This document shows, in pieces, positions 3,778 through 44,076 of a DNA stretch of 64,000 nt. The stretch is taken from the sequence record MK234886. One strand, written 5' to 3'. The notes below the pieces were generated by a model. The model did not search any database. It worked only from the letters and a program-made list of their open reading frames with translations, and was not told the origin of the DNA. The DNA comes from Escherichia phage AnYang. Position 1 is the first letter of the stretch. Each line of letters begins with the position of its first letter. The position numbers and the translations under genes are program-made.

Positions 3778-3819
3778 AGTATTTCCTTCAGTTGATTAAG
3801 ATTTATAATCCATGAGGAC

Positions 3820-3848
3820 ATTATACCCTGTCCTCTGAGGTTTGTAAA
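3820..3848 (-). promoter_or_regulatory. sigma70-type early promoter TTTACA-N17-TATAAT with overlapping stem-loop GAGGACA...TGTCCTC
   Basis: hexamers and inverted repeat read on minus strand upstream of 3184-3777 gene. Confidence 0.5.
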
Positions 3849-3852
3849 TATT

Positions 3853-4251
3853 TTATTTCATTTTTGCGAGGCAAATTTCATTGGCTTCCCATTGAGCTTG
3901 CTTAATAATAGCTTTGGATACAGGAACCCTTTGGCCATAAGTTTTTGACGTTGAGAGAACAATATGTTTGTTTGCTTCATTATGCCAGCCCCATGATTTT
4001 TCGCCATGAGTACCTTTAACTACAGCTGACACCTCAACAGAGCAACCACCATCAGAAATCTTGGTTTCGACAATCCATTCATTTCTTTCGACGGCTTCAA
4101 GTTCTAATCTAGTTTTTTCTTCATACATAGCGGCCCAATCAGTTTTTGCCAAGTTGAAAGTAAGAGCTTTCTCCAATTCTTTGGCAGCTTTTTGTTGTTC
4201 AGGCGTTAATGAATTATACAACTCTTGCATTTCTTTATCTTCGATATTCAT
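3853..4251 (-). CDS. hypothetical protein (132 aa)
   Basis: ORF track; GAGGAG RBS. Confidence 0.5.
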   Translation of the reverse strand: MNIEDKEMQELYNSLTPEQQKAAKELEKALTFNLAKTDWAAMYEEKTRLELEAVERNEWIVETKISDGGCSVEVSAVVKGTHGEKSWGWHNEANKHIVLSTSKTYGQRVPVSKAIIKQAQWEANEICLAKMK

Positions 4252-9676: not shown

Positions 9677-9684
<8 letters not shown>

Positions 9685-10438
9685 TTTTATTTCCTAATAA
9701 TTTATCAATAGTAGTGTATAGTTCAGAAAGAGTGCCGTTATTTTCAACAACAACGTCACCAGGTAAAATTGGTAGACCCGCTTCAGTGATGTGCGAGTCT
9801 TGTACTTGACCGGTTTCAGAGCGAACTACATGAATAATCGTAGCACCCATCGCTCTGAGCGAATCAATTTCGTGTGTTTGACGAACATCAGGTACGACAT
9901 AGTATTTCGCATCAGAGTATATTTTATCAAAATAGTCTAAAGCGAACAACTTAACCCAATACATCTTATCAAATTGGTTAACAATAATATCAGTCCCAAG
10001 GGTCTGCATGAGACGACGTACTGACCAATTGTTATTTTTATTTATTACTTCAAACAGTTGGTCTTTTGTTTCTTCAGACAGATACTGGACTGGGGTAAGA
10101 CCATAATGATATGCGGTACGAACGTCCATTCCTGGAATAGGAAGGATATTATTCAGTTTGACAATAGCATTTTCAAAGATATCAACCACATCATATGGTT
10201 TTAAAGGAAGGATTTCTTCACGGTCGTAACCGATACCTTCAAAACAGTTGAAATCCAGTTTAGGCATATAACTACGGTCGAATACAGGGTCATCAGAGAT
10301 GTATTCATAGGCTTCAGCCAGATACTTTTTAATAGGACCTGCGAGCTGAAATTTTACCGAATCCATATTTTCGATTACATAGTTAGCAACGGTATCCTTA
10401 CCGCTACGTTTGATTCCTACAATTGATATTAGTTTCAT
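9677..10438 (-). CDS. 1: gp1 deoxynucleoside monophosphate kinase
   Basis: P-loop GIKRSGKDT at N-terminus; 253 aa; synteny. Confidence 0.85.
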
Positions 10439-11028
10439 TATTTTCTCATAGATGGATGCATAGACATACGAGCCACACGTTGTTCGGCATACGAATCAAT
10501 TTGTGGACGACCTGTAACTATTGTACCATCTATTTCTACAGCAAACGATTTGAAGTTGAATGTTGCTGTAGCGATTATCGCAGGGTCAGAATCTTCTTTA
10601 TACGAATACTGGATTTCCGAGAGGTCGGATGGCCAACCACCGTAGTAATGAATGCTCATTACTATTTTCTGTTTGTTATTATCAAGGATATGGAGGGTAA
10701 TTGCTTCAGGTAAGCCTTTAGGATGCCAAGCTTCGGATTCGTGGGTTACATAGTTGTTTAATGACAACATCCACTTATAAACGTCAAGCCATGATTTCAA
10801 TTCACGGTCCACAAGAAAGTTCACAATCAATGGGTCGAATTCTACTGTAGAACCTGGCAGCTTAGCACGATGTATGCCCTGGGTCGATCCTGGGACGTCT
10901 GAGATCGGAATATGGATACCAGGTAGTGTTACATCTTGTACGTTCAATTTGAATGACTGTGTCATTCCTGAGTCACTAACCTCTAAGATAAAGTTGGTGG
11001 TGTTAGTTTGGTTAAATAAACCGTTCAT
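10438..11028 (-). CDS. 3: gp3 tail completion / sheath stabiliser
   Basis: synteny 1-3-2-4; AGGAA RBS; TAATG overlap with gene 1. Confidence 0.65.
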   Translation of the reverse strand: MNGLFNQTNTTNFILEVSDSGMTQSFKLNVQDVTLPGIHIPISDVPGSTQGIHRAKLPGSTVEFDPLIVNFLVDRELKSWLDVYKWMLSLNNYVTHESEAWHPKGLPEAITLHILDNNKQKIVMSIHYYGGWPSDLSEIQYSYKEDSDPAIIATATFNFKSFAVEIDGTIVTGRPQIDSYAEQRVARMSMHPSMRK

Positions 11029-11041
11029 AGGATTCCTATAT

Positions 11042-11067
11042 TGCTTAAATCCCGGACAGGGTATAAT
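11042..11067 (+). promoter_or_regulatory. promoter-like element on plus strand (TGCTTAA MotA-box-like, 13-nt spacer, TATAAT) antisense to genes 2 and 3
   Basis: core GGACAGGGTATAATG is the same as in the minus-strand promoter at 3820-3835 but in opposite orientation. Confidence 0.3.
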
Positions 11068-11110
11068 GGTCCTAGGTCTGTTCCATTCAATAACTGGCCG
11101 GGATAATAGA

Positions 11111-11947
11111 TTATGAATTCTTCCATACTTTCTGAGCTGAGTAACGCTTGCCTTTAGACATGAACTGTTGGAGAGGCATCATGACCACATTAGCCCAATC
11201 AGCAGGTTTTATCTCTACTAAAGGTCCTTTAATATTTCCTGGGATATAGGCCTTAATCATAACGTCTGCGCCAGCGAATCCTTTTACCTTACTCCAATCG
11301 ATTTTTAATTTAGTCGAGTTGGTAATGGTAGGTGTACTCGCGTATTGCTTCAGCAATTCTTCTAGAAATTGTTGGCGTGCTTTAGGCGGGATATAGTGTA
11401 GGTTCAGCCCATACATTAAATTATGCTTACCTAACCCAAGATAAATGATTAAAGGATATTTGTCCCAGTATGGCAGGGTATCCTTGTGTTTAGCGTCATA
11501 GATATAAGCATAAAGCTTACCGGGTTGTGGTTTAGATACCTGGTGTCCACGAATTCCTTTCTTTAATGTTTCTGTAAACCATTTAGCTGATTTATTGTTT
11601 ACAGCAGCGCCTTCGTTAGCAATCTTATCACGAATACTCTTTCTAAAACTATTCACCAAAATTAATTGACGTTCGGCTTTGGTTAATTTATTGCCAGGTT
11701 TCTTCTGAAGTTTTTCAACCTGTACAGCAGTTTTAATTCGACTCGAGTATCGAGACATCGCAGATGTAAAGCTAGAATACTTAATGCCTTTATCTTCAGC
11801 GAATTTCTTAGCCGAGACACCTTTAGCCTTAGCTTTGGCATATTCAACACCTAAAGCTATCCATTGTTGTTCTGAACGGGTAGGCTTAGAACCTTTTGTG
11901 GTTTCAGTAGCCTCATTGATGTAGGAAAATATACTCATCCTTTCCAT
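11111..11947 (-). CDS. 2: gp2 DNA end-protector protein
   Basis: 278 aa, synteny. Confidence 0.65.
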
Positions 11948-12384
11948 CCTAATTTTTTCAGTGAATGTTCGGTAATCAATCTAAAGGTGATACCCATTTT
12001 ATCTGCAGTAGCTTTAGCTGCTTTCCACTTATCGGTATTAACAGACCAAGTATAGTGTTCGTTGATATATCTCTTTTTAGCAGCCGTAGTCATTTTAACA
12101 GGCACCGCAGGAGCATGGGTTTCTTTAAAAGGTTTGACTTCAAAAAAGAATTGTTGGCCTGTATCAAATTTAACCCAGAAGTCCATAAAATATCGTCTTT
12201 TCTTTCCTTCGGCATTGCAAAAGTATGGGATAACCACCTCTTCTGAATTCCACTGGACTACATTAGGATGGTTGTCAAGCCAACGCATAAACCATGCTTC
12301 CCAAGAGGAACGATATTGGATTTTCTTCCAGTCACCTTTATATTTTTGTAAGTTTGTAGGTTTAAATTTCCCTGAGTAAGCCAT
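11935..12384 (-). CDS. 4: gp4 head completion protein (150 aa; ORF track start 12456, ATG 12384 preferred)
   Basis: GGAGG RBS upstream of ATG 12384; late promoter at 12411-12418; 150 aa as in T4. Confidence 0.7.
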
Positions 12385-12395
12385 AGTTGCCTCCT

Positions 12396-12403
12396 TATAA
12401 ATA
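12396..12403 (+). promoter_or_regulatory. late promoter TATAAATA for gene 53
   Basis: exact TATAAATA about 28 nt upstream of ATG 12431. Confidence 0.6.
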
Positions 12404-12410
12404 TTAATAT

Positions 12411-12418
12411 TATTTATA
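12411..12418 (-). promoter_or_regulatory. late promoter TATAAATA (minus strand) for gene 4
   Basis: reverse complement TATTTATA on plus strand, 27 nt from ATG 12384. Confidence 0.55.
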
Positions 12419-12430
12419 CTCGGAGGCCCT

Positions 12431-13033
12431 ATGCTCTTCTCATTTTTCGATCCCATCGATTACGAATCAAAAACAGTCAAGCCAGATTCGGGCTCATTAA
12501 CAAATGCCGATGTACTGAGCGTGCCGATGACTGATATATTTAGAAATTATAAAGAATATTTTGATAAAGTGGCTAAAAACTATACACTAAAGACTTATTA
12601 TATCAACGGGGCCCCTCGTCCGGAAGAATTGGCCAATCAACTTTATGGTAACGTTCAGTTATACTGGGTTTTATTGATGTGTAACAATATCTATGACCCT
12701 TATTATGGTTGGATTACAGGTCAAGAAGCAGCCTACCAAGCGGCAATCCAAAGATATTCTACTGCAGGCGGTAATCAAGTTCTTTATCACGTTAATGAAA
12801 AGGGTGAGAAATTCTGGAATCTTGTTAATACTCCAGAAAACCCGTATACTTGGTATGATAAAGGCGATACAGAAAAACGTTATCCTCAATATGAGGGCCC
12901 TTTGGCTGCAGTAGATATTTATGAGGATGCTATTCGTAAAAATGAATATAAGCGCGAAATAAAGATTGTAGACCCTAATGATATTGAGTCCTTTATTTCT
13001 GCCCTTATTCGCGAAATGGAGAAAGCCCTCTAA
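12431..13033 (+). CDS. 53: gp53 baseplate wedge protein
   Basis: 200 aa; divergent from gene 4, directly upstream of gene 5. Confidence 0.7.
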   Translation: MLFSFFDPIDYESKTVKPDSGSLTNADVLSVPMTDIFRNYKEYFDKVAKNYTLKTYYINGAPRPEELANQLYGNVQLYWVLLMCNNIYDPYYGWITGQEAAYQAAIQRYSTAGGNQVLYHVNEKGEKFWNLVNTPENPYTWYDKGDTEKRYPQYEGPLAAVDIYEDAIRKNEYKREIKIVDPNDIESFISALIREMEKAL

Positions 13034-42954: not shown

Positions 42955-43962
42955 TTATTTGGATACTAGTTCAATCCAAACATGTCTTAATGTTTCTTTT
43001 ACAGACTCGATGAGTTGCTTTTTAACTTCAACAGGATTTTCAGCGTCAGTTAATTCTAATTCTTCACGGGCGGCTTCTTCTAAGATATCTTGGACTGTCA
43101 AGCCCATTACCTTTCCGAAATCCTTTTTAGATACTTCGCCAATCTTACTGATGACATTGTTAATGCGGTTAACAGTCACATAATCGGTGAATTGCCACAT
43201 CAAATCCATATCGTCTTGGGATAAAACTACCGCAGTCTTGATAGGCTTATCGGACTTTTTCTTCTCGCTGAATTTAGAGTTCTTACATTTAATCGCTACG
43301 CGATTTCCGTTTGGAAGCCAGGTAGGAATATCAGGTTTAAGTACAAAGCCTTCGGCTGTAAATACTTTACCTTCTACCTTAGGAATAAAGTCTGTCGAGT
43401 TTGCAATAGTTAGGCCAGCGTTATCCACTGCAAAATTATAATCAGGAATAACTGAATCAAAGTCGTTAGGTAATTTAATAAGGTCTTCAAAGCTACCGGT
43501 GGCCAGACATGGAGCTACCTTAAACTTATGGATAATACAGAAGGCTTCCATCAATGTATCGGTTAGAACAGATTCTGAGCCATCTTCCTTAGTAACTCGG
43601 ATATCGAACACATAAAAGTCTTTATCGCCGTAGTCCACATTCTTCTGGATACCTGTCCCAGCGAATTCGCCATAAATCTGGTACGACTGATAATTAATCG
43701 ATTCAATTAGATGTTGAACAGATTTAATAGAATCGGCATAGTTCTTAAGTACAATTTCATAACCATAGAAATCTTCAGCAGGGAGGATAGGGCCAGTGCG
43801 CTTGGCGCATGTGACTGCGTCACGTTCTATGATTAAACTAAAGTTGGTTCCATGAATCTTCTCACGTGCCACCCATTCACCACCGGTCAAACCATTAGTA
43901 CGGAGTTTTTCGATAAACTTACTGTTGTAGTGGTTTTCGAGACTGCTATATTTCTTGAACAT
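42955..43962 (-). CDS. rnlB: RNA ligase 2
   Basis: 335 aa; nucleotidyltransferase motif [13 protein letters not shown]; N-terminus [20 protein letters not shown] matches T4 Rnl2 as I recall it. Confidence 0.9.
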
Positions 43963-44076
43963 AAATCACCATAATAAATATAATTAAATAGAAGAGCTAG
44001 TAGTCTTCTGTCACCAAGCCAAATGGTTTAACGGAAGGACCTAGACCCATTATAACACACCTAAATTTAAAGCATA

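Follow-up and report, generated by a model that had tools for sequence, protein, structure and literature searches.

The window analysed here was a stretch of 64,000 nt from Escherichia phage AnYang (MK234886). A region of about 2.1 kb around the junction of genes 2 and 3 was 93–97.5% identical to Dhakavirus phages, e.g., IME341, IME08, and Bp7, and the window phage is a Dhakavirus (JS98/IME08-like T4-type phage). Gene 1 (dNMP kinase, 9677–10438), gene 3 (tail completion and sheath stabilizer, 10438–11028, start codon 11026–11028), and gene 2 (DNA end protector, 11111–11947, stop codon TAA 11111–11113) are all read from the minus strand. Gene 4 lies beyond gene 2, also on the minus strand, and is followed by genes 53 and 5 on the plus strand. 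The start codon of gene 3 and the stop codon of gene 2 are separated by a spacer of 82 nt (11029–11110). Pfam searches gave no match for gp2, gp3, or the homing endonuclease that some relatives carry at this junction.

The late promoter motif TATAAATA was matched at 12411–12418 on the minus strand, the sole match on that strand between 9000 and 14000, from where it would serve a 4-2-3 operon. Another match at 12396–12403 on the plus strand would serve genes 53 and 5, and the two late promoters stand back to back between genes 4 and 53. The spacer contained no TATAAATA on either strand. Since the late promoters at 12418 (−) and 12396 (+) were the sole ones nearby, genes 4, 2, and 3 were taken to form one late operon, which makes the gap at 11029–11110 intercistronic.

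The longest ORF of gene 4 (start 12456) begins upstream of the late promoter of the gene itself; the true start is therefore probably the ATG at 12384, which gives a 450-nt CDS as annotated in relatives. A terminator-like hairpin with a T-run was seen at 12478–12496 (−), inside the 5' portion of gene 53 and a little upstream of the late promoter of gene 4, and it could stop early counter-clockwise transcripts ahead of the late 4-2-3 operon.

The translation initiation region of gene 3 (11026–11040, minus strand) comprises the SD AGGA (11034–11037) and the AUG (11026–11028) inside a small 6-bp hairpin, and it abuts a MotA-box-like sequence on the opposite strand. At the gene 2 side of the spacer lies the conserved block GATAATAGATTA (11102–11113, plus strand), which takes in the gene 2 stop codon; TAATCTATTATC was invariant or nearly so across the alignments. 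An intrinsic terminator scan of the spacer detected none on either strand. A sense sigma-70 promoter for genes 3 and 1 (TTGAAT-16-CATTAT) was considered and rejected, with a score of 8/12 and with neither spacing nor sequence conserved across lineages. According to the published promoter tables, gene 1 has its own middle promoter in T4 (P1, 75393; PMC2988021) and in RB69 (Pm:78672; PMC1524935).

A middle-promoter-like element in the gene 2-3 spacer

On the plus strand of the spacer, the MotA-box-like sequence TATTGCTTAA (11039–11048, GCTT core 11043–11046), a match to the consensus, is followed by a promoter spacer of 13 nt (11049–11061) and by the sigma-70 −10 hexamer TATAAT (11062–11067), which lies inside GGACAGGGTATAATGGTCC (11054–11072). 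This layout in the 82-nt gap is the one that the sequence-only reading had described, and it was confirmed. The 13-nt spacer is fixed in length and free in sequence, and it also forms one arm of an inverted repeat. The predicted transcription start, 7 nt past the −10 hexamer, would be A11074 on the plus strand.

The T4 middle-promoter box is given as (a/t)(a/t)(a/t)TGCTTtA and the whole promoter as (a/t)3TGCTTtA-N11-13-TAtaaT in the published consensus (PMC2988021; PMC1524935), with 12 ± 1 bp from the MotA box to the −10 element (PMC2988021). The window box reads TAT-TGCTT-AA, its sole mismatch being the A at the weakly conserved t/c position, and a TATAAT stands 13 bp after the box. Like T4 MotA/AsiA middle promoters (e.g., P1, PuvsX, and PrnlB), the element has a TGCTT box near −30, no −35, and a perfect sigma-70 −10, here 13 bp downstream of the box. 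The pattern TGCTT-N14-16-TATAAT was met 3 times on the two strands of the 64 kb, where chance predicts 0.29, and none of 100 shuffles reached 3. Calculated from this window-wide expectation, the chance of such a match in the 82-nt gap is on the order of 1e-4.

One of the three matches, TGCTTTAAATTTAGGTGTGTTATAAT at 44049–44074 (−), was located in the gap upstream of the RNA ligase 2 (rnlB) ortholog (42955–43962) and had the same N15 geometry as the gene 2-3 element. PrnlB is an identified T4 middle promoter at the corresponding position (PMC2988021), and TGCTTTAAATTTAGGTGTGTTATAAT is likely its ortholog. With such a copy of equal geometry, the window phage appears to use the T4 box with N15 geometry. 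No match to MotA or AsiA was found by tblastn within the 64-kb window; motA and asiA would be expected elsewhere in the genome by synteny. The Dhakavirus relatives IME281 and KIT01, which are 93–94% identical at the locus, encode MotA homologs with about 50% identity to T4 MotA.

The element does not lie upstream of a middle gene; it is directed antisense into late gene 2, and the nearest genes ahead of it in its own orientation, 53 and 5, start only after 1.36 kb and have their own late promoter. It thus differs from the catalogued T4 middle promoters in being clockwise, in pointing antisense into a late gene, and in that its activity is predicted. Lying upstream of a co-oriented middle gene is usual for middle promoters and is not defining, P34i being an exception. 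P34i, which lies inside late gene 34, and PuvsY are middle promoters that, like the window element, stand in or next to late-gene territory (PMC2988021).

The sequence-only reading had also equated the core of the element with that of a minus-strand early promoter at 3820–3835. The 15-mer GGACAGGGTATAATG was present in exactly two window copies, 11054–11068 (+) and 3819–3833 (−), where about 0.11 chance matches are expected even with 2 mismatches allowed. The similarity ended at the edges of the 15-mer, and in close relatives the spacer carried AGACAGTGTATAATG, which differs at 2 of the 15 positions; because of this difference, the identity was judged to be a coincidence of this genome, and the proposed tie between the two promoters was given up. 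The limit of 15 nt and the differences in the relatives' spacer copy also ruled out a cassette common to the two sites. No dispersed promoter-hairpin repeat was found, the 15-mer having just two copies and no extension. PeSL (promoter-early stem-loop) cassettes of RB49-type phages combine a promoter and a stem-loop in a short intergenic module. Unlike them, the window element is single-copy, of the middle and not the early type, and vertically conserved at one locus, and the Krischvirus Phi1 is without it. The promoter at 3812–3855 (−) is of the early type (TTTACA-17-TATAAT), and lies upstream of a minus-strand gene starting near 3779. A perfect hairpin of 6 bp (GAGGAC / GTCCTC) carries the −10 hexamer of this promoter in its loop.

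The T4 copy of the gene 2-3 element, TAATGCTTTA-TAACTGTTGGTGG-TATAATGGGTCTAAG, was located at 75965–75993 of NC_000866 (plus strand). It is a full consensus match (TAATGCTTTA-N13-TATAAT) and also has an extended −10 (TGn). The rule that the start lies 7 nt after the −10 reproduced the mapped T4 P1 start (75393) exactly, and by this rule the T4 start is predicted at 76000 (+). Fifty-eight T4 middle promoters have been identified, and Table 1 of that catalogue passes from P1 (75393) to PrnlB (109763) with none near 76000 (PMC2988021); the searches behind it were aimed mostly at early and middle regions. In T4 gene 3, a strong match to a sigma-70-like promoter (TTGACA-18-TATTAT with TG, 11/12) was seen on the plus strand at 75573–75602 of NC_000866, also clockwise and antisense.

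For RB69, Nolan et al. 2006 listed an HMM-predicted middle promoter, Pm:79256, on the plus strand with a score of 16.3 (Additional file 4), one of just 5 of 32 RB69 HMM predictions on that strand (PMC1524935). In RB69, the gap between these genes runs from the gene 3 end at 79250 to the gene 2 start at 79353; Pm:79256 falls inside it and is therefore orthologous to the window element, which it resembles in gap, strand, and form (CGCTTTA-N12-TATAAT). It appears in Nolan et al. as a table coordinate, and the table carries no discussion of its orientation, conservation, or meaning. The RB69 ortholog was accordingly predicted in 2006; set against these published tables, the T4 copy is uncatalogued. 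A literature search retrieved neither a description of an antisense promoter at genes 2/3 nor a discussion of the orientation and conservation of the element.

In T4, the reference system for phage transcription, the catalogue of middle promoters is regarded as nearly complete and its members as almost all counter-clockwise. If the element is active, an uncatalogued clockwise middle promoter of consensus quality, conserved in several genera and directed into a late gene, would bring a defined antisense transcript into the T4 programme. The MotA-dependent, 'middle' score of gene 2 in unstranded RNA-seq, in an operon whose other members score as late, would then have a simple explanation too. 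For annotation of Dhakavirus and Tevenvirinae genomes, it would be a regulatory element ignored by gene callers.

Conservation of the element and the gene-sense hairpin

Gene 2-3 junctions were gathered from 10 and 23 IMG/VR loci (overlapping sets), and GenBank junctions of T4, RB69, Shf125875, STP4-a, COW86c, an Acinetobacter phage, Phi1, PWKp16, AS4, Fraggle, and Muldoon were added. Thirteen lineages were aligned on the −10 element, among them T4, RB69/Mosigvirus, Gelderlandvirus, an Erwinia phage, an Acinetobacter phage, and five Dhakavirus-related clades. The columns conserved in at least 80% of the lineages were GCTT, TATAAT, and GGT-CTA just downstream. The GCTT core was present in 12/13 lineages, and TATAAT was identical in 12/13, the remaining one having TACAAT. 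The distance from TGCTT to TATAAT was N15 in 12/13 lineages and N14 in Mosigvirus (box to −10 spacer 12 bp), and the bases in between varied freely. Variants of the box were CGCTT and the GCTG of the Acinetobacter phage, whose MotA is very divergent. TACAAT, CGCTT, and GCTG all sit at positions where middle promoters tolerate change.

The box stands upstream of the gene 3 SD in T4 and Dhakavirus and between that SD and the annotated start in STP4-a and COW86c; despite this shifted place, the distance from the box to the −10 was unchanged. The distance to the −10 is therefore better kept than the position in the gene 3 leader. Conserved blocks with a free spacer in between make a pattern typical of a two-block promoter, which would be harder to obtain from a gene 3 leader signal. 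The promoter-critical bases were kept across genera with gp3 proteins just 47–55% identical, while neighbouring bases had turned over. GGTnCTAG just after the −10 and the block GATAATAG were also conserved, and the promoter alone does not explain this.

The element was absent where the gene 2 stop overlaps the gene 3 start (the Klebsiella-type loci L029 and L031-33 and the Marfavirus PWKp16), in Aeromonas phage AS4 and Serratia phage Muldoon, and in Phi1 (Krischvirus) and Fraggle, where synteny is broken. Several MotA-encoding lineages (L029, L031-33, and PWKp16) were without the spacer altogether, so the element is dispensable.

On the minus (gene-sense) strand, a stem-loop with arms at 11094–11104 and 11049–11059 encloses the conserved block CTAGGACCATTATA; this inverted repeat has arms of 11 nt that are 91% complementary. 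The GGAC/GTCC hairpin pointed out earlier from the sequence has 4 bp only, and the real inverted repeat is this 11-nt pair. After the stem come UUUAAGCAAUAU on the sense strand and AAUAGAUUAUG on the plus strand, neither forming a terminator U-tract. Every lineage with the spacer had a stable hairpin soon after the gene 2 stop (z-scores −1.3 to −5.8), with stem sequence and register varying among lineages. The hairpin stands ahead of the ACCATTATA block in T4, Mosigvirus, Gelderlandvirus, and COW86c, and around it in Dhakavirus. Owing to the differing registers of the stems, RNAalifold found no structure common to 11 spacers. These are recurrent, lineage-specific hairpins, and no strict covariation is claimed. 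An Rfam search of the spacer gave no family (best hit snoU6-53, 13.6 bits, E = 4.9, at noise level), and most of the lineage hairpins were without a U-tract.

The hairpin is treated here as a separate feature that overlaps the promoter element. G.U pairs in L018 and STP4-a are compatible with the gene-sense strand only. One Dhakavirus arm is the promoter spacer, which would be untranscribed from the plus strand, so the stem belongs to the 4-2-3 mRNA (or to DNA) and not to the antisense RNA. In Serratia phage Muldoon (L050 611–656), a hairpin with a U-run in the gene 2-3 spacer is annotated as a terminator, and the antisense promoter motif is absent; this suggests that the hairpin after gene 2 is an older or more general feature. 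T4 hairpins that are intercistronic or sequester ribosome-binding sites (genes e, soc, I-TevI, 25, and 38) resemble it as stable hairpins upstream of a ribosome-binding site in polycistronic late mRNA (PMC3014915). The window hairpin differs from the sequestering type in that its main stem lies off the gene 3 SD and AUG and no late promoter lies inside it.

The conserved blocks could instead act on the gene-sense late mRNA, with the promoter likeness on the opposite strand being incidental. The hairpin after gene 2, the single-stranded ACCAUUAUA, and AAGCA before the gene 3 ribosome-binding site would then make up an intercistronic signal. Such a signal might terminate transcription in part, might be a site for RNA processing or stability, or might fix the gp2:gp3 ratio by controlling translation. 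The stable hairpin right after gene 2 in every spacer-bearing lineage (z to −5.8), G.U pairs that fit the sense strand only, a Dhakavirus stem arm that could not fold in the antisense RNA, the Muldoon hairpin, the conservation of GGTnCTAG and GATAATAG outside the promoter hexamers, and T4 reads about 9-fold lower in gene 3 than in gene 2 (see below) all agree with this reading. The scarcity of U-tracts, the RNAalifold result, and the Rfam result speak against it, and in the sense orientation there is no TATAAATA late promoter in the spacer, TTGAAT-16-CATTAT being the only, weak, sigma-70 candidate. Nor does it explain why precisely GCTT-N15-TATAAT survives in the most distant copies (L034, STP4-a, and COW86c), or why AAGCA shifts relative to the SD and yet keeps a constant distance to ATTATA. 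As a replacement for the promoter, a signal in the sense mRNA is unlikely; the promoter and sense-mRNA readings are compatible with each other.

RNA over gene 2 in T4 and the proposed antisense transcript

T4 RNA at 5 min was compared between wild type, a motA amber mutant, and a dksA-deletion host with the read counts of Patterson-West et al. 2018 (Table S1, PMC6024815). Mean reads (wild type; motA amber) and the fold in the dksA-deletion host were 17598; 372 and 0.66-fold for gene 1, 131; 25 and 0.66-fold for gene 3, 1208; 61 and 0.65-fold for gene 2, 527; 22 and 0.11-fold for gene 4, 597; 14 and 0.085-fold for gene 53, 729; 62 and 0.20-fold for gene 5, and 504; 11 and 0.14-fold for gene 5.1 (PMC6024815). 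Gene 2 reads thus fell to 0.046-fold in the motA amber mutant, a 22-fold drop; the library was stranded and its counting mode is unstated, and these reads are not assigned to a strand (PMC6024815). In the dksA-deletion host, gene 2 stayed at a level like that of the middle genes 1, 57A, and 57B (0.62-fold for the last two), and the late genes stood lower, with 4, 53, 5, and 5.1 at 0.09–0.20-fold; transcription from middle promoters (Pm) was little affected by DksA, and late RNAs were low at 5 min without it (PMC6024815). Per kb, reads in that host were calculated as about 825 for gene 2, 104 for gene 4, and 147 for gene 3, and in wild-type T4 reads fell about 9-fold from gene 2 to gene 3. In the time course of Wolfram-Schauerte et al. 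2022 (Table S2), where counting followed the featureCounts defaults and was hence unstranded, the RNA of gene 2 fell into the 'middle' class and that of genes 3, 4, 53, and 5 into the 'late' class.

Gene 2 of T4 is therefore an island of MotA-dependent, DksA-insensitive, middle-like RNA, unlike genes 3, 4, 53, and 5, and this RNA may come from either strand. It fits an antisense RNA from the spacer. A sense RNA confined to gene 2, running from about 45 nt upstream of gene 2 to the spacer hairpin, fits the sharp drop at both borders equally well, which counts against taking these data for the antisense promoter alone. No consensus MotA-type promoter was found on the gene-sense strand of T4 between 75955 and 77371. 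The sole sense candidate ahead of gene 2 in T4, a weak one (GCTG-N12-TAAAAT at 76943), was rejected: it falls within the coding sequence of gp4 and is not retained in the window.

Genes 38 and/or t of T4 (NC_000866 159649–160877) are late genes and yet were 'early' or rose in the motA amber mutant (PMC6024815; PMC9697503), behaviour described as unexpected in PMC6024815. It would be explained if antisense RNA reading through from the neighbouring early asiA/motA region had been counted without regard to strand, by analogy with the account considered for gene 2.

The element is probably a functional MotA/AsiA-type middle promoter, conserved across Tevenvirinae, that is directed antisense into gene 2 and overlaps a sense-strand hairpin. 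The antisense promoter put forward in the sequence-only reading is in this sense supported, by the conserved critical bases and spacing, the RB69 HMM prediction, and, indirectly, the T4 RNA-seq, which fall short of proof. The motif, its geometry, its conservation, and the motA genes of close relatives are observations; that the promoter is active in vivo, where its transcript starts, how long this RNA is, and what it does are predictions. At middle times, host RNA polymerase with AsiA-remodelled sigma-70 would bind TATAAT at 11062–11067, and the TGCTT box, with its centre close to −30, would be occupied by MotA. From a start close to A11074, the polymerase would proceed clockwise and read the 3' part of late gene 2 in the antisense direction or, in endonuclease-carrying relatives, would enter the homing endonuclease gene. 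The antisense RNA so made would most likely be non-coding and a few hundred nucleotides long. The search for a terminator of this RNA found none, and a small ORF on it (14 codons from 11113) was rejected, since the ATG is missing from T4 at the corresponding place. The antisense RNA would oppose premature or excess expression of the distal late 4-2-3 operon, either by base-pairing with the sense transcript or through head-on interference. On the gene-sense strand, the same stretch of the 4-2-3 late mRNA would fold into an intercistronic hairpin a short way ahead of the ribosome-binding site of gene 3.

The transcript could serve as an antisense brake on the distal late operon, could act through transcriptional interference, or, less likely, could be an R-loop primer. 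That T4 and its relatives share a conserved, unrecognised middle-phase antisense RNA against late gene 2 with a dedicated regulatory role is a tentative and rather doubtful proposal. Such a role might consist in silencing gp2 and the distal 4-2-3 operon until late times or in priming replication from an R-loop.

Homing endonuclease insertions and other readings

T4 ori(uvsY) and ori(34) are MotA-dependent middle promoters at which a persistent R-loop primes leading-strand synthesis; in the pairs P34i/ori(34) and PuvsY/ori(uvsY) the promoter has an origin role, and its transcript is not primarily an mRNA. A real promoter at the gene 2-3 junction whose transcript primed DNA replication in the same way would have comparable architecture, being a consensus middle promoter in late-gene territory that does not serve a downstream middle gene, and the T4 record places oriE at 79355, about 3.3 kb away. 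The annotated oriE lies elsewhere, however, and fires in the opposite direction. Unlike ori(34) and ori(uvsY), the junction has no mapped origin and no evident DNA-unwinding element downstream; the stretch that follows the promoter shows no unusual A+T richness, and part of it is a G+C-containing hairpin. As several lineages are also without the element, an origin function is improbable.

In C6 (L001 1212–1766) and dhabil (L002 1212–1862), a homing endonuclease gene stands between gene 2 and the spacer. It is 651 nt as annotated in dhabil, and C6 annotates a shorter CDS of 555 nt. The insertion point corresponds to window position 11110/11111, at the gene 2 stop codon, with a TAATG overlap, immediately beyond TAATCTATTATC, and the 82-nt spacer is intact downstream of the endonuclease gene. 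Matches in two pieces suggest the same insertion in 04086 and SHP1. In such phages the predicted antisense RNA would cross the endonuclease gene first, and a 651-nt insertion between promoter and gene 2 in viable relatives argues against an essential antisense role specific to gene 2.

Since the spacer is intact beside the endonuclease gene, the element is not a scar of that insertion. The suggestion of the sequence-only reading that it might be the relic of a cassette insertion was abandoned, the element being conserved from Acinetobacter phages to T4 and the cassette adjoining it without replacing it. A non-functional relic of whatever kind, be it an old cassette or homing-endonuclease scar or a chance look-alike of the 3819–3833 core, is very improbable: the hot spot for homing endonucleases at this junction, the lineages without any spacer, and the exact 15-mer shared with another window promoter would suit it, but a scar would decay evenly, while here the promoter-critical bases were kept as their neighbours turned over, the 15-mer identity ended at 15 nt and was missing in close relatives, and the endonuclease gene inserted beside the element and left it intact. 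A Seg-like endonuclease gene precedes gene 2 in STP4-a, and the junctions around gene 2 form a hot spot for mobile genes of this kind.
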